From: Escherichia phage KM02
DNA: 40,673 bases
Reading direction: 5' to 3' (one strand)
Sequence record: PQ179042
Shown: positions 13,481 to 27,129 of the stretch, piece by piece
Position numbering within the stretch: position 1 is the stretch's first letter
How the letters are laid out: every line of letters begins with the position of its first letter
Translations under genes and position numbers: made by a program
The notes under the pieces: generated by a model
Database searches by the model: none
Told to the model about the DNA's origin: nothing
What the model saw: the letters and a program-made list of their open reading frames with translations, nothing else

Positions 13481-15652
13481 ATGTTTGACCTTAAGAGTAT
13501 CTGGGGTTCTGACATCGAGACCGACGGTCTCCTTGATACAGTCTCCCAGTTTCACTGTGGGGTACTGATTAACGCCGAGTCGAATGAGACCCTTAAGTAT
13601 GGGGTAGCTCCGATGGTCGGTATCGTCGGGGGCTTCAAAGAGTATGTTCAGAAGGTGGAAGAGATTGCCGCATCACCTGATGGTATGCTGGTATACCACA
13701 ACGGTATCAACTACGACGTCCCTGCTATTGACAAGCTGAAACGTCTGTACTTTGGGAAACGCTTTAACTTCCCAAAACACAAGATGATTGATACCTTGGT
13801 GCTTGGGCGCTTGATGTATCCCAACATTAAGTTCTCAGACATGGGAGCAGTGAAAGCTGGTCGTCTGCCCCCTAAGATGATGGGACGCCAGTCTCTTGAG
13901 GCTTGGGGCTATCGTCTCGGTGAGATGAAGGGTGAGTACAAACACGATTACGTTGCCAAGTGCAAGGCCGAAGGTATCGAATATAAGGCTGGGGACGAAT
14001 GGTTGTTCCCGTCTCAGGAGATGCTAGACTATAACGTTCAAGACGTTGTGGTAACGCTGGCGTTGTTCAAGAAGTTCCTGACTGACAAGTATTACTTCCA
14101 GTCTGAACAGTTCGCTTTCGACCAGATTTATGCGTTGCGTCTGGAACATGATGCTGCGTGGACCTGTGCGAAGATGGAGCGTAACGGCTATCCGATGAAC
14201 ACCGAGATGGTCGAAGGCTTATATCGTGAACTCACCATCAAACGTGCAGAGTTGTTGGACAAGCTGCGTTCGACTTTCGGTAGCTGGTATGCACCAAATG
14301 GAGGCAAGGAGTTCTTCAAGCACCCACGGACAGGCAAGGACCTTCCGAAGTATCCGCGAGTCGTGTATCCTAAGGTCGGGTCAGTATTCAAGAAGCCGAA
14401 GAACAAAGCTCAACGCTTAGGTCTGGAGCCTTGCGAGTTCGACTCACGAGACACGATGGAAGGAGCACCGTTCACGCCAATCACTTACGTTGAGTTTAAT
14501 CCGGGAAGCGGAGACCACTTAGCGAAAGTCTTGATGGAGCGTGGTTGGGAGCCTGTTGACTTCACTGACACTGGGAAACCTGTAGTCGATGACGAGACGT
14601 TAGAACACGTTAAGCTACCAGACGCAGAGGCTCAGGCTTGCGTAGAGCTGGTCCGTGAGTATCTGGTAGTCCAGAAGCGCATCGGTCAGGCGGCTGAAGG
14701 TAAGAACGCATGGTTGAAACTTATAGGTCCAGACGGACGTATGCACGGTTCAATCAACCCATGCGGCGCAGTAACAGGACGTGCGACTCATAGTTCACCA
14801 AACATGGCTCAGGTCCCTGCTAACGGTGCTCCGTATGGTGAGATTTGCCGTGGTGCTTTCGGTGCAGCTTGGAACAAGACGGATAGTAAGCCAGACCCTT
14901 GGATTCAAGTGGGTGTGGATGCTTCAGGTCTTGAGCTTCGTTGTCTGGGGAACCGAGCTGCTCCGTTTGATGGTGGGGCCTATGCGAAGACTGTGGTAGA
15001 AGGTGACATCCACTGGGCCAACGCAGTCAACGCTGGGTTAGCACCTAACGTCCCACGCGACAAGTCGAGCCACGACCACGATGCTTTCCGTAACAACGCT
15101 AAGACGTTCATCTATGCGTTCCTGTATGGTGCAGGGGCCGCGAAGATTGGACTAATAGTTGGTGGTGGTAAGAAGGAAGGTGCTGCCCTGATGAAGAAAT
15201 TCATTGAGGGTACACCAGCTATCAAGGACCTCAGGGAAGCTGTGAATAATACGTTAATCTCAGACTCTAAGTGGGTGGATGGTGAGAATATCGTTAAGTG
15301 GAAACGCCGTTGGTTGCGTGGACTTGATGGTCGCCGTATCCACATCCGGTCGCCACACTCAGCACTGAACGCATTACTTCAAGGTGATGGCGCGGTAGTC
15401 TGTAAGCACTGGATGGTACTGACGGAGAAGAAACTTGAGGAAGCTGGCTACGGTAATGGCTGGGATGGTGACTTTGCGCTAATGGCTTGGATTCACGACG
15501 AATTGCAGATTGCGTGTCGTACTCAGGAGATTGCCGAAGAAGTCGTCCGTATTGCACAAGAAGCAATGCGTGAGGTAGGACGTTTTTATAACTTCAAGTG
15601 TGATCTTGATACGGAGGGTAAGATTGGACCAACGTGGAAAGAATGCCATTGA
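13481..15652 (+). CDS. 5: DNA polymerase (family A)
   Basis: Strong identity to T7 gp5 throughout (KFHCGV, HNG..YDVPA, QDVVVT, GRATHSSPNMAQVP, DASGLELRC, AKTFIYAFLYGAG, HDELQ); ATG 13481 with SD ggagga preferred over the track GTG 13445. Confidence 0.97.
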   Translation: MFDLKSIWGSDIETDGLLDTVSQFHCGVLINAESNETLKYGVAPMVGIVGGFKEYVQKVEEIAASPDGMLVYHNGINYDVPAIDKLKRLYFGKRFNFPKHKMIDTLVLGRLMYPNIKFSDMGAVKAGRLPPKMMGRQSLEAWGYRLGEMKGEYKHDYVAKCKAEGIEYKAGDEWLFPSQEMLDYNVQDVVVTLALFKKFLTDKYYFQSEQFAFDQIYALRLEHDAAWTCAKMERNGYPMNTEMVEGLYRELTIKRAELLDKLRSTFGSWYAPNGGKEFFKHPRTGKDLPKYPRVVYPKVGSVFKKPKNKAQRLGLEPCEFDSRDTMEGAPFTPITYVEFNPGSGDHLAKVLMERGWEPVDFTDTGKPVVDDETLEHVKLPDAEAQACVELVREYLVVQKRIGQAAEGKNAWLKLIGPDGRMHGSINPCGAVTGRATHSSPNMAQVPANGAPYGEICRGAFGAAWNKTDSKPDPWIQVGVDASGLELRCLGNRAAPFDGGAYAKTVVEGDIHWANAVNAGLAPNVPRDKSSHDHDAFRNNAKTFIYAFLYGAGAAKIGLIVGGGKKEGAALMKKFIEGTPAIKDLREAVNNTLISDSKWVDGENIVKWKRRWLRGLDGRRIHIRSPHSALNALLQGDGAVVCKHWMVLTEKKLEEAGYGNGWDGDFALMAWIHDELQIACRTQEIAEEVVRIAQEAMREVGRFYNFKCDLDTEGKIGPTWKECH

Positions 15653-15683
15653 CCCTCGAACCAAGACCTTGCGCTTCCACACA

Positions 15684-15977
15684 ATGCCTACTGGATGTAT
15701 CGTCTGCGTGTCCCACAAGAGGAACCAAGATGGATACTTCCGGTATTCTATGTGAAGCTACAGGAAGGGCAACAAGTTCGCCTTCATGTTTCACAGATGG
15801 GTGTGGGAACAGAAGCGCGGACCTATACCGGATGGCTATGAGATAGACCATTTGTGTTTGAATCGTGGGTGCTGTAACGTAGAACATCTACAATGTATTC
15901 CAAAGCGTGATCACGTCATCAAGACTAACCGTGAGCGCAAACTTATTAAGAAGGAGAAGACTAATGGCTATTACTAA
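15684..15977 (+). pseudogene. HNH homing endonuclease (T7 gene 5.3 position) interrupted by an in-frame TGA at 15753-15755
   Basis: Frame reads MPTGCIVCVSHKRNQDGYFRYSM-stop-SYRKGNKFAFMFHRWVWEQKRGPIPDGYEIDHLCLNRGCCNVEHL; HNH-like on both sides of the stop. Confidence 0.55.
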
Positions 15978-16248
15978 ACGTATTCGTGTAAGTTTCGACC
16001 TGAAGATGGTTGTCAACTCAAAGGAAGAAGAGACCATGTGTCGCCAACTGGCTGAGATGACTAAAGCCTACGCTGATGGCGAGAAGCTGGATGGACTTCA
16101 GTTGGCTATGGTCAAAGCAGCAATCGAGTCAGGACCTGAGTCTGCCCTCGAGATTGCCGTCAAGAAGGTCATCAAGGAGGAGCTGGTGGACGCCTTTGGT
16201 GATGACCAGTTCGGTGTGTCCAACCTGCAATTCGAGGTCAAGCAATGA
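15964..16248 (+). CDS. 5.5: gp5.5-like protein
   Basis: MAITKRIRVSFDL matches the T7 gp5.5 N-terminus MAMTKRFKVSFDV; SD aaggag; the track ORF 15907 is an upstream extension. Confidence 0.7.
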   Translation: MAITKRIRVSFDLKMVVNSKEEETMCRQLAEMTKAYADGEKLDGLQLAMVKAAIESGPESALEIAVKKVIKEELVDAFGDDQFGVSNLQFEVKQ

Positions 16249-18908: not shown

Positions 18909-19149
18909 ATCAATCAGTAAGGCATTCAAGAAAGTGGTGAAAAGTACGCTAGGGACCGTTGGTCTTGGCTCTGATGACGCACCTAAGGTTGTTGAGGCTC
19001 AGACCCCAGCAGCACCAGTGGAAGTACCGAACGACCAAGTTGAAGATGTGGATACCGAAGCGACTGCATCTGACGAGAAGAAAGTGAAGAGTTCAGGTAA
19101 GCGTAGCCTTCAGGTCTCTCGTACCTCTGGTGGCGGTATTTCTATATGA
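18901..19149 (+). CDS. 7.3: gp7.3-like virion/tail protein
   Basis: MGK...KK N-terminus and C-terminal SGKRSLQVSRTSGGGISI match T7 gp7.3 (KKSLSVARSSGGGINI); GTG start. Confidence 0.7.
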   Translation: MGKSISKAFKKVVKSTLGTVGLGSDDAPKVVEAQTPAAPVEVPNDQVEDVDTEATASDEKKVKSSGKRSLQVSRTSGGGISI

Positions 19150-19538
19150 CACCATGTCATGAATGGGGTGGATACTGCACCAAGGATGGCTACGGTGAAA
19201 CTAGGGTAGATGGGCGCAAGGTTCGCGTTCATCGCCTAGAGTGGACGAAACACTACGGACCTATTCCGCATGACAAAGTGGTTCGCCACAAGTGTGACAA
19301 CCCTAAGTGTTTTAATATTGAACACCTAGAGTTAGGAACAACACAGGATAACACGGCTGACAGAGTGTCTCGTGGTCGAAGCGCCAAAGGAGAGGATAAC
19401 GGTAACGCCGTCCTCACTATTGATATTGTTAATGAGGTTCGCGAAAGTAGCATGTCTCAGCGCAAAATAGCGAAGACCTATGGAGTGTCACAGTCTACCG
19501 TATCTAAAATCAAACGCAATGTAACGTGGAGGTCATAA
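19146..19538 (+). CDS. HNH homing endonuclease with C-terminal helix-turn-helix (T7 gene 7.7 position)
   Basis: KDGYGETRVDGRKVRVHRLEW...GPIPHDKVVRHKCDNPKCFNIEHL plus HTH IAKTYGVSQSTVSKIKR; 130 aa. Confidence 0.8.
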   Translation: MTPCHEWGGYCTKDGYGETRVDGRKVRVHRLEWTKHYGPIPHDKVVRHKCDNPKCFNIEHLELGTTQDNTADRVSRGRSAKGEDNGNAVLTIDIVNEVRESSMSQRKIAKTYGVSQSTVSKIKRNVTWRS

Positions 19539-19539
19539 C

Positions 19540-21108
19540 ATGGCAGAACGTGAAGGATTTGCGGCTGAAGGGGCGAAGGCAGTTTATGATAGGCTAAAGA
19601 ACGGACGACAGCCTTACGAGACCCGCGCACAGAACTGCGCTGCCGTGACCATCCCCTCGCTATTTCCCAAGGAGTCCGACAACTCCTCTACGGAATACGT
19701 GACGCCGTGGCAAGCTGTAGGTGCTCGCTGTTTAAACAACTTGGCTGCAAAGCTGATGTTGGCATTATTCCCTCAGTCACCGTGGATGCGACTGACAGTC
19801 TCAGAATATGAGGCCAAGACCTTGAGTCAGGACTCAGAGGCTGCTGCTCGTGTTGACGAAGGGCTGGCTATGGTCGAGCGTGTGTTGATGGCATACATGG
19901 AGACTAACAGTTTCCGTGTCCCATTGTTCGAAGCTCTGAAGCAGCTTATCGTCTCAGGTAACTGTCTGCTCTACATTCCAGAGCCTGAACAGGGTACTTA
20001 CAGTCCTATGCGAATGTACCGCTTAGTGTCATACGTTGTTCAACGTGATGCTTTCGGTAACATCTTGCAGATTGTGACTCTCGACAAGGTAGCGTTTAGT
20101 GCTCTACCGGAAGACGTAAAGTCTCAACTCAACGCAGACGACTATGAGCCTGACACCGAGCTTGAAGTGTATACGCACATCTACCGTCAGGACGACGAGT
20201 ATCTGCGCTACGAGGAAGTGGAAGGCATTGAGGTTACAGGGACCGATGGTTCCTACCCGCTGACTGCATGTCCATACATCCCGGTACGAATGGTTCGACT
20301 GGATGGTGAAGACTACGGTCGTTCTTACTGCGAGGAGTATCTGGGAGACCTGAACTCGCTGGAGACGATTACAGAAGCTATCACTAAAATGGCTAAGGTA
20401 GCCTCCAAGGTGATTGGCCTCGTTAACCCGAACGGTATCACGCAACCTCGACGTCTGAACAAGGCTGCTACAGGTGAGTTCGTGGCTGGTCGCGTTGAGG
20501 ACATCAACTTCCTGCAACTGACGAAAGGTCAGGACTTTACGATTGCCAAGTCGGTGGCTGATGCTATCGAGCAACGTTTAGGCTGGGCCTTCCTTCTTAA
20601 TAGTGCTGTTCAGCGTAATGCCGAGCGAGTCACTGCTGAAGAGATTCGTTATGTTGCTGGCGAACTGGAGGCGACCTTAGGTGGCGTTTACTCAGTACAG
20701 TCACAAGAGCTTCAGTTACCTATCGTCCGTGTTCTGATGAACCAGCTTCAGTCTGCTGGAATGATTCCTGACCTTCCGAAAGAAGCGGTAGAGCCTACTG
20801 TCTCCACTGGTCTGGAAGCGTTAGGTCGTGGTCAGGACTTGGAGAAGCTAACTCAGGCGGTTAACATGATGACTGGTCTTCAGCCGCTATCTCAGGACCC
20901 GGACATCAACTTGCCGACCCTTAAGCTACGACTCCTGAACGCTCTGGGTATCGACACCGCTGGTCTACTCCTGACGCAAGACGAGAAGATTCAGCGCATG
21001 GCTGAGCAGTCGTCTCAACAGGCAGTTGTCCAAGGTGCGTCTGCTGCTGGTGCTAACATGGGTGCTGCTGTAGGTCAGGGAGCTGGTGAGGACATTGCTC
21101 AAGCCTAA
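19540..21108 (+). CDS. 8: Portal (head-tail connector) protein
   Basis: Near-identity to T7 gp8 over long stretches (YETRAQNCA, TIPSLFPK, TPWQAVGAR, YRLVSYVVQRDAFGN, YLRYEEVEG, RMVRLDGEDYGRSY). Confidence 0.97.
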   Translation: MAEREGFAAEGAKAVYDRLKNGRQPYETRAQNCAAVTIPSLFPKESDNSSTEYVTPWQAVGARCLNNLAAKLMLALFPQSPWMRLTVSEYEAKTLSQDSEAAARVDEGLAMVERVLMAYMETNSFRVPLFEALKQLIVSGNCLLYIPEPEQGTYSPMRMYRLVSYVVQRDAFGNILQIVTLDKVAFSALPEDVKSQLNADDYEPDTELEVYTHIYRQDDEYLRYEEVEGIEVTGTDGSYPLTACPYIPVRMVRLDGEDYGRSYCEEYLGDLNSLETITEAITKMAKVASKVIGLVNPNGITQPRRLNKAATGEFVAGRVEDINFLQLTKGQDFTIAKSVADAIEQRLGWAFLLNSAVQRNAERVTAEEIRYVAGELEATLGGVYSVQSQELQLPIVRVLMNQLQSAGMIPDLPKEAVEPTVSTGLEALGRGQDLEKLTQAVNMMTGLQPLSQDPDINLPTLKLRLLNALGIDTAGLLLTQDEKIQRMAEQSSQQAVVQGASAAGANMGAAVGQGAGEDIAQA

Positions 21109-23434: not shown

Positions 23435-23550
23435 CTTAAAGTGAGGATGATTATGTTTTACTTACTTACAGCCTTGGGACTATTTGTTAGTTTCTGGGCG
23501 ATTATATTATTAACCGGACCATGCAGTCCTTACGACAGATAGGAGGGAGT

Positions 23551-24117
23551 ATGGCTCAATACATTCCACTGAATGCTAACGATGACTTAGACGCTATCAA
23601 CGATATGTTAGCTGCTATCGGTGAACCATCAGTCCTACAGCTTGACGAAGGTAACGCTGACGTCTCGAATGCTCAACGTATATTACATCGTGTCAATCGT
23701 CAGGTCCAAGCTAAAGGATGGAACTTTAACATTAATGAAGCTGCTATCCTGACACCTGATGTCCAAGACAACAGGATTCGATTCTTGCCGTCATACCTTC
23801 GTGTAATGACTGCCGGTGCCACCAGCTACTACAGCAACATGGGTGGATACCTGTACGACCTGTCCACTCAGTCAACCACTTTCACCGACCCTATAACGGT
23901 AGAGCTTGTTGAGATGAAACCGTTCTCTGAGATGCCTGTGGTATTCAGGGATTACATCGTTACCAAGGCCAGCCGTGAGTTCAACGCTAAGTTCTTCGGT
24001 AGCCCAGAGTCTGAACTGTACCTTCGTGAGCAGGAAGCAGAACTCTATCAGCAGGTCATGGAATACGAGATGGACACTGGTCGCTACAACATGATGTCAG
24101 ACATCGGGAGGGACTAA
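23551..24117 (+). CDS. 11: Tail tubular protein A
   Basis: DAINDMLAAIGEP, GWNFNI, MEYEMDTGRYNM match T7 gp11; ATG 23551 with SD aggaggga preferred over the track start 23521. Confidence 0.9.
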   Translation: MAQYIPLNANDDLDAINDMLAAIGEPSVLQLDEGNADVSNAQRILHRVNRQVQAKGWNFNINEAAILTPDVQDNRIRFLPSYLRVMTAGATSYYSNMGGYLYDLSTQSTTFTDPITVELVEMKPFSEMPVVFRDYIVTKASREFNAKFFGSPESELYLREQEAELYQQVMEYEMDTGRYNMMSDIGRD

Positions 24118-24344
24118 TGGCTAGTCACAACCTGAAGATTCACCGCCAACACTTTGGTCCGGTACAACTAGGTCTAAAGACAGCAGAGCTGAGACTTAAC
24201 GACCGTGACTTTAAGGTTGGCGACTGGCTTATCCTGAATGAGTGGAACAACGGGTATACTGGACAACAGGTAGCACGTAAGGTTGTCCACATTGCTGACG
24301 TTGGGGACATCGCTGAAGGATACGTCCTAATGAGTATGATTTAA
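24117..24344 (+). CDS. Small DUF3850/ASCH-like (PUA-fold) protein
   Basis: HNLKIHRQHFGPVQLGLKTAELRLNDRDFKVGDWLILNEW..GYTG fits the recalled DUF3850/ASCH pattern; SD gggaggga; no counterpart between T7 genes 11 and 12. Confidence 0.5.
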   Translation: MASHNLKIHRQHFGPVQLGLKTAELRLNDRDFKVGDWLILNEWNNGYTGQQVARKVVHIADVGDIAEGYVLMSMI

Positions 24345-24355
24345 GTGGAGGTGAT

Positions 24356-24796
24356 ATGATACACGACAAGTGCGGTCTGGAGTTTAGGGAGGGAGCAAAA
24401 GGCTCATGCTTGAACTGTAGACGTATAGCCAAGCTGGTAAAGAAAGGACTATCAGTGGAGGAAGCTAGATTAGTTGAGCCGAGAGGAAAGAAGGTCATTA
24501 AAGATAAAGACTGGAAGAAGAACAGTCAGCTTAAATATCTTTATGGCATCAACCTAGAGAGGTTTAATAAAATGCGAAAGGAGGCAAACTATCAGTGCCA
24601 AATCTGTGGGTGTCATGAGAGCGAGAGTACAGGAGGGACATTATGTGTTGACCACAACCACGAAACTGGTGAGGTTAGAGGTCTTCTCTGTAGGCACTGC
24701 AATAAGTCTCTAGGAGGTTTCAAGGACTCCCGTGAGATTCTACTAAACGCTGCTAAGTATCTGGAGGACACATGCCGCTTATCACACAAAGCATAA
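24356..24796 (+). CDS. Endonuclease VII-like nuclease
   Basis: CQICGCHES...CVDHNHETGEVRGLLCRHCNKSLG matches the T4 endonuclease VII family core; SD ggaggtga. Confidence 0.75.
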   Translation: MIHDKCGLEFREGAKGSCLNCRRIAKLVKKGLSVEEARLVEPRGKKVIKDKDWKKNSQLKYLYGINLERFNKMRKEANYQCQICGCHESESTGGTLCVDHNHETGEVRGLLCRHCNKSLGGFKDSREILLNAAKYLEDTCRLSHKA

Positions 24797-27129
24797 AAAA
24801 TCTTAAAGGTGGCATTAGCCAGCAGCCTGATATACTGAGGTTCTCGGACCAAGGCGAGAAACAGGTAAACTGCTGGTCATCAGAGAGTGATGGCCTACAG
24901 AAGCGTCCACCTACAGTATTCAAGCGACGTCTTAACATCGACGTTGGGAGCAACCCTAAGTTCCACCTGATTAACCGTGATGAGCAGGAGCAGTATTACA
25001 TCGTGTTCAACGGGTCCAACATTCAGGTAGTCGACTTGAGCGGTAATCAATACTCAGTTTCAGGTGCGGTAGACTACGTTAAGTCGTCCAACCCGCGAGA
25101 TAACATCCGTGTCGTTACAGTTGCAGACTATACGTTCATCGTGAACCGTAAGGTTGTCGTTAACGGTGGAAGCGAGAAGTCACACTCTGGTTATAATCGT
25201 AAAGCTCGTGCTTTAATTAACCTGCGTGGTGGACAGTATGGTCGCACCCTTAAGGTAGGAATCAACGGAGGCGTTAAGGTTTCGCATAAGCTGCCAGCAG
25301 GTAATGATGCCGAGAATGACCCACCTAAGGTGGATGCTCAGGCCATCGGTGCAGCTCTGAGAGACCTTCTTGTTGCTGCTTACCCTACCTTCACGTTCGA
25401 CCTTGGGTCTGGCTTCCTGTTAATCACTGCCCCTTCAGGGACTGACATTAACTCAGTGGAGACGGAGGATGGCTACGCTAACCAGCTAATCAGCCCAGTC
25501 CTAGACACGGTGCAAACAATCTCTAAGTTGCCTCTTGCGGCTCCAAATGGGTACATCATTAAGATTCAAGGTGAGACCAACAGTAGCGCCGATGAATATT
25601 ACGTGATGTATGACTCCAATACTAAGACGTGGAAGGAGACAGTAGAGCCGGGAGTTGTCACTGGGTTCGATAACACCACAATGCCACATGCTCTGGTGAG
25701 ACAATCTGACGGCTCCTTTGAGTTTAAGACTCTGGACTGGTCTAAGCGGGGTGCTGGCAATGATGACACAAACCCTATGCCTAGCTTCGTGGATGCTACG
25801 ATTAACGATGTGTTCTTCTACAGGAACAGGCTAGGGTTCTTGTCCGGAGAGAACGTAATCATGAGCCGTTCAGCCAGCTACTTTGCGTTCTTCCCTAAGA
25901 GTGTGGCGACATTGAGTGATGATGATCCTATTGACGTAGCTGTAAGTCACCCTAGAATCTCAATACTTAAGTATGCCGTTCCGTTTAGCGAGCAGCTACT
26001 ACTTTGGTCAGATGAGGTGCAGTTCGTGATGACAAGCTCAGGGGTCCTTACCTCGAAGTCTATCCAGCTTGATGTGGGCTCAGAGTTTGCCTTAGGTGAT
26101 AACGCCAGACCGTTCGCTGTAGGACGCTCAGTCTTCTTCTCAGCGCCTCGTGGGTCATTCACCAGTATTAAGCGATACTTCGCTGTAGCAGATGTGTCTG
26201 ACGTGAAGGATGCCGATGATACCACTAGTCACGTACTGTCCTATATCCCTAACGGGGTGTTTGACATTCAAGGTACAGGGACTGAGAACTACATCTGCGT
26301 CAACTCTACAGGTGCATACAACCGAATCTACATCTACAAGTTCTTGTTTAAGGACGGCGTACAACTTCAAGCCTCTTGGTCGCACTGGGAGTTTCCTAAA
26401 GCTGATAAGATTCTGGCGTCTGCGTCGATTGGCTCTACCATGTTCATTGTTCGTCAGCACCAAGGGGGTGTGGACATTGAGCACCTTAAGTTCATCAAGG
26501 AGGCAACCGACTTTCCATTAGAGCCGTATAGACTCCACGTTGACTCCAAGGTGTCTATGGTAATACCAAATGGCTCATACAACGCTGACACCTATAAGAC
26601 TACGGTTGACATTGGTGCTGCTTATGGGGGCAACGCTCCGTCTCCCGGTCGGTACTATCTGATTGACAGTCAGGGTGCCTATGTGGACCTTGGTGAACTT
26701 ACCGACATCTCTACTGTGATTACCCTCAACGGCGATTGGTCGGGACGTACAGTGTTCATCGGACGGTCTTATCTGATGTCCTACAAGTTCTCACGGTTCC
26801 TGATTAAGATTGAAGACGATAGTGGCACTCAGTCTGAAGACACTGGTCGTCTACAGCTTCGTCGGGCTTGGGTCAACTACAAGGACACTGGCGCTCTGAG
26901 ACTCATTGTCAGAAACGGTGAGCGGGAGTTCGTGAATACCTTCAACGGGTACACCCTTGGTCAGCAAACCATCGGTACTACAAACATTGGTGACGGGCAG
27001 TATCGATTCGCTATGAATGGTAACGCATTAACCACGAGTCTAACCTTAGAGTCCGACTATCCTACCCCAGTGTCCATCGTTGGGTGTGGCTGGGAGGCAT
27101 CATACGCTAAGAAAGCTCGTTCAGTCTAA
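24772..27129 (+). CDS. 12: Tail tubular protein B
   Basis: SQSIKNLKGGISQQPDILR, LQKRPP, HLINRDE, VTVADYTFIVNR, RAWVNY, GCGWE match T7 gp12. Confidence 0.95.
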   Translation: MPLITQSIKNLKGGISQQPDILRFSDQGEKQVNCWSSESDGLQKRPPTVFKRRLNIDVGSNPKFHLINRDEQEQYYIVFNGSNIQVVDLSGNQYSVSGAVDYVKSSNPRDNIRVVTVADYTFIVNRKVVVNGGSEKSHSGYNRKARALINLRGGQYGRTLKVGINGGVKVSHKLPAGNDAENDPPKVDAQAIGAALRDLLVAAYPTFTFDLGSGFLLITAPSGTDINSVETEDGYANQLISPVLDTVQTISKLPLAAPNGYIIKIQGETNSSADEYYVMYDSNTKTWKETVEPGVVTGFDNTTMPHALVRQSDGSFEFKTLDWSKRGAGNDDTNPMPSFVDATINDVFFYRNRLGFLSGENVIMSRSASYFAFFPKSVATLSDDDPIDVAVSHPRISILKYAVPFSEQLLLWSDEVQFVMTSSGVLTSKSIQLDVGSEFALGDNARPFAVGRSVFFSAPRGSFTSIKRYFAVADVSDVKDADDTTSHVLSYIPNGVFDIQGTGTENYICVNSTGAYNRIYIYKFLFKDGVQLQASWSHWEFPKADKILASASIGSTMFIVRQHQGGVDIEHLKFIKEATDFPLEPYRLHVDSKVSMVIPNGSYNADTYKTTVDIGAAYGGNAPSPGRYYLIDSQGAYVDLGELTDISTVITLNGDWSGRTVFIGRSYLMSYKFSRFLIKIEDDSGTQSEDTGRLQLRRAWVNYKDTGALRLIVRNGEREFVNTFNGYTLGQQTIGTTNIGDGQYRFAMNGNALTTSLTLESDYPTPVSIVGCGWEASYAKKARSV

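Follow-up and report, generated by a model that had tools for sequence, protein, structure and literature searches.

Escherichia phage KM02 has a complete-looking genome of the T7 type, falls within the genus Kayfunavirus, and is ~93–94% identical to its nearest relatives in GenBank. In the window, i.e., the whole stretch of 40,673 nucleotides that we analysed, a small gene lies between the DNA polymerase gene (gene 5) and a gene 5.5-like gene (Table 1). The latter is annotated as gene 5.5 or HNS binding protein in SD6, SH3, EcSW4, and phiYeO3-12. The frame of the small gene is open from 15579 to a TGA, reopens at 15756, and then runs to a TAA at 15975–15977. The frame that holds position 15654 translates as TLRFHTMPTGCIVCVSHKRNQDGYFRYSM, stop, SYRKGNKFAFMFHRWVWEQKRGPIPDGYEIDHLCLNRGCCNVEHLQCIPKRDHVIKTNRERKLIKKEKTNGYY, stop, and the nucleotides at 15750–15758 read ATG TGA AGC. 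The probable start of this gene overlaps the last 29 nt of the polymerase gene. Because gene 5.5 has a ribosome-binding site of its own, the polar effects of an upstream stop should be small.

Table 1. Features of the gene 5.3 locus of KM02 (positions in the window).
Feature	Start	End	Strand	Description and evidence
DNA polymerase gene (gene 5)	13445	15652	+	Ends with TGA at 15650–15652; list of open reading frames; annotated as DNA polymerase in all relatives
Shine-Dalgarno-like GGAGG	15613	15617	+	6 nt before TTG 15624; read from the sequence
Truncated N-terminal gene 5.3 frame	15624	15755	+	Probable TTG start, 43 sense codons, premature TGA; encodes LDQRGKNAIDPRTKTLRFHTMPTGCIVCVSHKRNQDGYFRYSM, then stop
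Premature opal codon	15753	15755	+	G to T at 15753 changes Gly44 (GGA) to TGA; alignments and base-by-base comparison with R1
Gene 5.3 in-frame remainder	15756	15977	+	73 codons and TAA, undamaged; includes the 63-codon ORF from ATG 15786
Pfam HNH_3 (His-Me finger) catalytic domain	15786	15917	+	FHRW...DHLCLNRGCCNVEHL...DHV; hmmscan; invariant H, C, N, C, N, H columns
Gene 5.5-like (H-NS-binding) gene	15964	16248	+	Own AAGGAG at 15951–15956; shares 14 nt with the end of gene 5.3

We identified the catalytic domain using the curated gathering score of Pfam (24.8) as the criterion for a match. The 63-codon ORF at 15786–15977 contains a complete HNH_3 domain (PF13392, E = 5.9e-19, 67.9 bits). When the opal codon is ignored, the conceptual protein of 117 codons matches the same profile at residues 55–98 (hmmscan, E = 2e-18, 66.2 bits). 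KM02 has, as DHLCLNRGCCNVEHL, the H, C, N, C, N, and H positions that are invariant in 27 homologues and that include the residues for catalysis and metal binding in the beta-beta-alpha-Me motif (DH...N...H plus the Cys ligands). The uninterrupted frame expected of an HNH_3 enzyme is lacking: the TGA lies 43 codons after the probable start and 10 codons before the domain.

The conceptual protein is 80.8% identical to gene 5.3 of phiYeO3-12 over residues 13–111 and 82.7% identical to the gene 5.3 product of T7M, and the record of Pipis cites gene 5.3 of T3 (Y53_BPT3, E = 1.9e-40). The order gene 5, gene 5.3, gene 5.5 is the same in the annotated relatives and in phiYeO3-12. The small gene of KM02 is orthologous to the gene 5.3 found in T3 and phiYeO3-12, and the label of an HNH endonuclease at the gene 5.3 position, given in an earlier note made from the letters alone, was right. 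The copies of these Teetrevirus phages share with that of KM02 the slot between gene 5 and gene 5.5, the N-terminal block, and the HNH_3 core. They differ from it in three respects: KM02 has the opal codon at Gly44, it has a probable TTG start within the 3' end of the polymerase gene where phiYeO3-12 and T3 have an ATG with a Shine-Dalgarno sequence after the polymerase stop, and its C-terminus is of the ...EKTNGYY kind. More generally, gene 5.3 has two C-terminal variants caused by a difference of 1 nt in length before the start of gene 5.5. One ends with ...KKECH or ECR and has a TAATG stop-start overlap. The other ends with ...KKEKTNGYY, overlaps the first 14 nt of gene 5.5, and occurs in KM02, R1, SD6, and the loci L006 and L007.

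The closest copy of the gene is that of Escherichia phage vB_EcoP-R1 (OQ703102, hereafter R1), which is identical to KM02 at 323 of 325 nt (99.4%). The two differences are the nonsense change at 15753 and a synonymous one at 15926. R1 has an intact gene with GGA at the position of the TGA, and it shares the start context and the C-terminal variant of KM02. In the alignment, R1, SH3, MopsHU1, and Pipis read ATGGGAAGC and KM02 reads ATGTGAAGC. Among the ~28 close relatives that we read directly, all those retaining the codon encode glycine, either with GGA or with another glycine codon; the exception is TH20, which lost the preceding 65 nt. The lesion is thus best described as one substitution, G to T at 15753. 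The rest of the gene is free of further decay, which indicates that this transversion is evolutionarily very recent. A search for the TGA allele with an exact degenerate pattern returned nothing from IMG/VR or the JGI metagenomes, and the control pattern with GGA did find SH3. An exact look-up of the 63-residue product gave no record. The earlier note had reported an in-frame TGA flanked on both sides by HNH-like sequence, which is what we find (the HNH_3 domain downstream, a homologous N-terminal block upstream), and among its proposals that of a fresh pseudogene is the one supported by these comparisons.

The consequences of the stop depend on where translation begins. The nine codons at 15657–15683, upstream of ATG 15684, show a pattern of purifying selection across 18 relatives: eight of them (R, T, T, L, R, F, H, and T) keep their amino acid while using two or three synonymous codons each, and the ninth shows a single change between K and Q. 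This near absence of other variation means that translation must begin further upstream, and the coding region proposed earlier to begin at 15654 had to be corrected. The only well-placed start is TTG 15624, within the 3' end of the polymerase gene; in the subgroup of KM02 the gene 5.3 cassette abuts the polymerase stop. The GGAGG preceding this TTG is conserved, which is not independent evidence because it is also within the polymerase coding sequence. The annotation of MopsHU1 uses the TTG start. Relatives with an unambiguous ATG preceded by a Shine-Dalgarno sequence (phiYeO3-12 and the IMG/VR loci L007 to L013) start 25–26 codons before the DGYFR motif, and the curated gp5.3 of phiYeO3-12 (110 aa) begins with MGGVATLRFH after TAAGGAGG. 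The true start of the gene is thus probably TTG 15624. With this start, the intact protein would have 117 codons and the product of KM02 would be a stub of 43 residues.

GenBank annotations of gene 5.3 in the relatives are inconsistent, with products of 113 aa (from the TTG), 93 aa, or 71 aa. The gene is unannotated in R1, U8, and EP1, and a spurious ORF on the reverse strand is annotated instead in EcSW4 and CtuP_B1. We rejected ATG 15684 (the 93-aa annotation) and ATG 15750 (the 71-aa annotation) as true starts because the codons upstream of them are under strong purifying selection and because relatives with their own Shine-Dalgarno sequence and ATG start 26 codons before DGYFR. The patterns of selection support only the long form of the gene, and the real N-terminus of the family lies ~25–35 codons upstream of DGYFR.

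The segment upstream of the stop, when taken alone, matches no Pfam family. Yet it belongs to the gene 5.3 protein: across 27 homologues, some of them with only 35–50% identity, G15, C16, S21/H22, N25, and D27-G-Y-F-R31 show no or almost no variation. In 13 relatives aligned without gaps, the 29 codons before the stop (the block TLRFH..YSM, GC..SH..N.DGYFR) have a dN/dS of 0.05, against 0.15 for the loop of 11 codons after the position of the stop and 0.06 for the C-terminal 55 codons, HNH_3 included. For one family member, the AlphaFold (AF2) model (pLDDT 86, pTM 0.74) places three beta-strands before the stop and the position of the stop itself in the beta3-beta4 hairpin loop, which has lower pLDDT than any other stretch and is the richest in indels among the homologues. 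The stop is in a variable beta-hairpin loop 10 codons before HNH_3 and outside the catalytic core. The suggestion that it lies within the conserved core was inaccurate; the stop falls where constraint on the protein is weakest.

Sequence searches placed the family only weakly among proteins of solved structure. Searches with the single protein returned spurious matches (e.g., TCR beta and NDUFB10), and those with the family profile gave I-HmuI as the only plausible match, with a marginal E-value of 0.15, so a comparison of folds was needed. The best solved matches of the model in Foldseek were I-HmuI (PDB 1U3E, probability 1.00, TM 0.58) and I-PpoI, a His-Cys box enzyme (probability 0.8). I-HmuI is the HNH homing endonuclease of the Bacillus phage SPO1. 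It is encoded in an intron and has a C-terminal helix-turn-helix also present in more distant members of the family, whereas the gene 5.3 proteins are free-standing, much shorter (~100–117 aa), and devoid of that element. The profile alignment with I-HmuI, ..H..KDGY.R..HR..DH.., covers the segment upstream of the stop (E = 0.15). We presume that the H-x-C-x4-C-x4-H spacing together with the N-terminal Cys resembles the first zinc site of I-PpoI. The possibility raised earlier that the upstream segment is foreign to the HNH fold is at odds with these data, because the N-terminal block is conserved in the homologues and aligns with the N-terminal part of I-HmuI.

Gene 5.3 is a dispensable, accessory gene. 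Penshu1 lacks the cassette, with an unrelated spacer of ~105 nt instead, and YZ1 (NC_047927) has a different, unannotated insert of ~370 nt in the slot (690–1065 of that locus). An insert of the type of YZ1 is apparently also present in HC12, HC13, and 6925. The junctions of the cassette are directly after the polymerase stop and directly before the ribosome-binding site of gene 5.5. Close relatives thus differ in whether this one site between two conserved genes holds gene 5.3, as expected of a free-standing homing endonuclease gene. Among previously described phages, SH1 lacks gene 5.3, SH2 and phiYeO3-12 have it, and its product, annotated as a homing endonuclease in SH2, was called a homing endonuclease and a mobile element (Hamdi et al., PMC4925675). 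The literature that we found on the function of gp5.3 consists of statements at the level of annotation, with no biochemical or genetic study. We infer that homing is the way of life of this gene.

Other copies of the gene are also damaged. SP7 (MT682707) has a deletion of 1 nt in a CCC run at the SH codons, and TH20 (MT446394, a record marked 'UNVERIFIED') has a deletion of 65 nt between CCATG direct repeats that removes MPTGC..DGYFRYS. Among metagenomic proteins, P0009 and P0013 lost the catalytic core by deletion and P0026 is frameshifted. In the close Kayfunavirus group, the three lesions (KM02, SP7, and TH20) all fall in the N-terminal half and leave the catalytic one untouched, a distribution that chance could produce with p ~0.06. 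The presence or absence of gene 5.3 at one intergenic slot, the strong purifying selection in its intact copies, and its scattered inactivated copies are shared with homing endonuclease genes that go through gain, fixation, decay, and loss. Intact copies under selection combined with sporadic decay make the pattern expected of a selfish or accessory nuclease gene.

The surroundings of the cassette are mosaic. From 15392 to 16015 (624 nt, covering the 3' end of the polymerase gene, gene 5.3, and the start of gene 5.5), KM02 has five differences relative to R1, whereas the flanking segments in the polymerase gene and gene 5.5 are 6–7% diverged. Recombination or co-conversion around the cassette could account for this block. 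T7-like phages often show such mosaicism without homing as well, and as a sign of homing the block is only suggestive. At the left junction of the cassette, the last polymerase codons (15640–15653, GAATGCCATTGAC) are identical to those of Penshu1 and YZ1, two phages without the HNH gene, and show three synonymous differences from R1, at 15643, 15646, and 15649.

We think it most probable (about 0.72) that KM02 carries a genuine and fresh nonsense mutation, resulting in a null or near-null allele of a known accessory HNH gene of the homing type. Gene 5.3 is a small free-standing His-Me finger (HNH_3) cassette, present in many Studiervirinae and missing from others, and in KM02 a single change of G to T at 15753 would have turned Gly44 (GGA) into an opal stop. 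Translation from TTG 15624 would end after 43 residues, and the HNH_3 module would no longer be made, save for the background readthrough of 0.1–1% that affects any stop. The accessory nature of the gene, which is of the homing-endonuclease type, would explain why the phage tolerates this loss. The truncated products are presumably inactive. The C-terminal fragment alone is expected to be so because four strands and the invariant N-terminal residues are missing from it, and because of the presumed likeness to the first zinc site of I-PpoI. To speak of loss of function presumes a function of gp5.3 that is itself predicted.

An error of sequencing, assembly, or consensus, or a minority variant that entered the consensus, could create the same picture in a phage that really has GGA and an intact gene. 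We consider this unlikely, if far from negligible. The TGA is the sole lesion in an otherwise pristine copy that has one other, synonymous, difference from R1 in 325 nt, and the allele is unique among all the sequences that we examined. A consensus or base-calling error would look identical, and an error would explain the lack of further degeneration just as well as a very recent mutation would. The damaged copies of SP7 (in a CCC run) and TH20 ('UNVERIFIED') also come from records that may contain errors. However, the change in KM02 is a substitution and not a homopolymer indel, consensus substitution errors are rare at the usual depth of phage sequencing, and no other gene in the 40.7 kb of the window has a broken frame.

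The other explanations keep the TGA as a real codon and differ from that of a null allele in what the ribosome would do with it. Expression of the gene might persist at a low and possibly useful level, by near-cognate readthrough of UGA-A with insertion of Trp at a tolerant position of the loop or by termination and reinitiation at AUG 15786, the stop acting as an attenuator of a potentially harmful nuclease. We regard this as improbable, even if the stop lies in the most variable and indel-tolerant loop, the whole of HNH_3 is intact downstream, and the lesions of KM02, SP7, and TH20 share their N-terminal location (at p ~0.06 for chance). Readthrough of stop codons in bacteria occurs at frequencies of 1e-3 to 1e-2, and up to ~10% under stress (PMC10057733). 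The background frequencies would give traces of full-length gp5.3 and nothing more. A stop used for programmed readthrough or selenocysteine insertion is expected to be conserved in relatives and to be followed by a stimulatory RNA element. Here, 0 of the ~28 close relatives have it, it was not found in IMG/VR or the JGI metagenomes, and a scan of Rfam with E-values up to 10 revealed no SECIS or other relevant element, only two matches at chance level (C0719 and NEAT1_2). The RNA fold near the stop does not stand out (z = -1.5), and the scan for promoters and terminators gave background levels. Programmed readthrough is thus unsupported; the earlier note had listed TGA readthrough as one option. 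The same note's suggestion of reinitiation at ATG 15786 is possible and unsupported. The nearest purine-rich tract is ~16 nt from this AUG, which therefore has no usable Shine-Dalgarno sequence, and the AUG lies in a predicted stem. The resulting product of 63 residues lacks beta1 to beta4 and the invariant C16, SH, and DGYFR residues, which are as constrained as the core. Upstream, AUG 15750 directly precedes the stop, and the overlapping GUG 15752 lies in another frame. A stronger version of this idea holds that the opal codon is no dead end, that a small fraction of ribosomes would insert Trp in this tolerant surface loop, where an A follows the stop, and yield a full-length nuclease, or would restart at AUG 15786 and yield a catalytic mini-HNH of 63 residues, and that, with the lesions of SP7 and TH20, it reflects recurrent selection for an attenuated or N-terminally stripped gp5.3 over plain decay; we give it little credence.

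A split enzyme, in which an active nuclease forms from the 43-residue N-terminal peptide and a C-terminal fragment with its own translation start, would find some encouragement in the model, where the break falls in a predicted surface hairpin loop between two structural blocks. This option, also listed in the earlier note, is hardly credible: none of the relatives carries the gene in two pieces, the second half lacks a signal for starting translation, and the interruption arose by one point mutation and has no compensating change. Recoding of the TGA, either as selenocysteine or by an alternative code with Trp or Gly, is effectively refuted. The replaced residue is a Gly and code 25 reads TGA as Gly, which is a coincidence only. 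Under an alternative code one expects in-frame TGA codons in many genes and no TGA as a terminator, and KM02 shows neither. The polymerase gene ends with a TGA and all the large genes of the 40.7-kb genome are open under table 11, which led us to reject an alternative genetic code. The relatives of KM02 infect Enterobacteriaceae, which use the standard code, and no SECIS accompanies the codon.

The family, location, and optional presence of gene 5.3 were known before, as was the decay of genes of this sort; only this allele is new. Gene 5.3 of KM02 is best annotated as a pseudogene or a disrupted HNH gene rather than as a 63-aa 'HNH endonuclease', and the finding has little import beyond annotation. 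If the allele is real, it provides a natural knockout that can be compared with the near-isogenic GGA allele of R1 for the role of gp5.3, be it homing, exclusion of related phages, or nothing.

KM02 encodes other putative nucleases. At 19146–19538 (+), directly upstream of the portal gene (19540–21108), an intact gene encodes a second free-standing HNH_3 endonuclease, which is 130 aa long and carries a helix-turn-helix at its C-terminus. It aligns with gene 5.3 over the catalytic core only (37% over 43 aa) and thus says nothing about the N-terminal block. An ORF of 146 aa at 24356–24796 (+) has an Endonuclease_7 domain (E = 2e-20) and is probably another mobile nuclease cassette. It lies between the ORFs at 23521–24117 and 24117–24344 and a gene of 785 aa at 24772–27129; from the order of the genome, these neighbours are probably the tail tubular genes.
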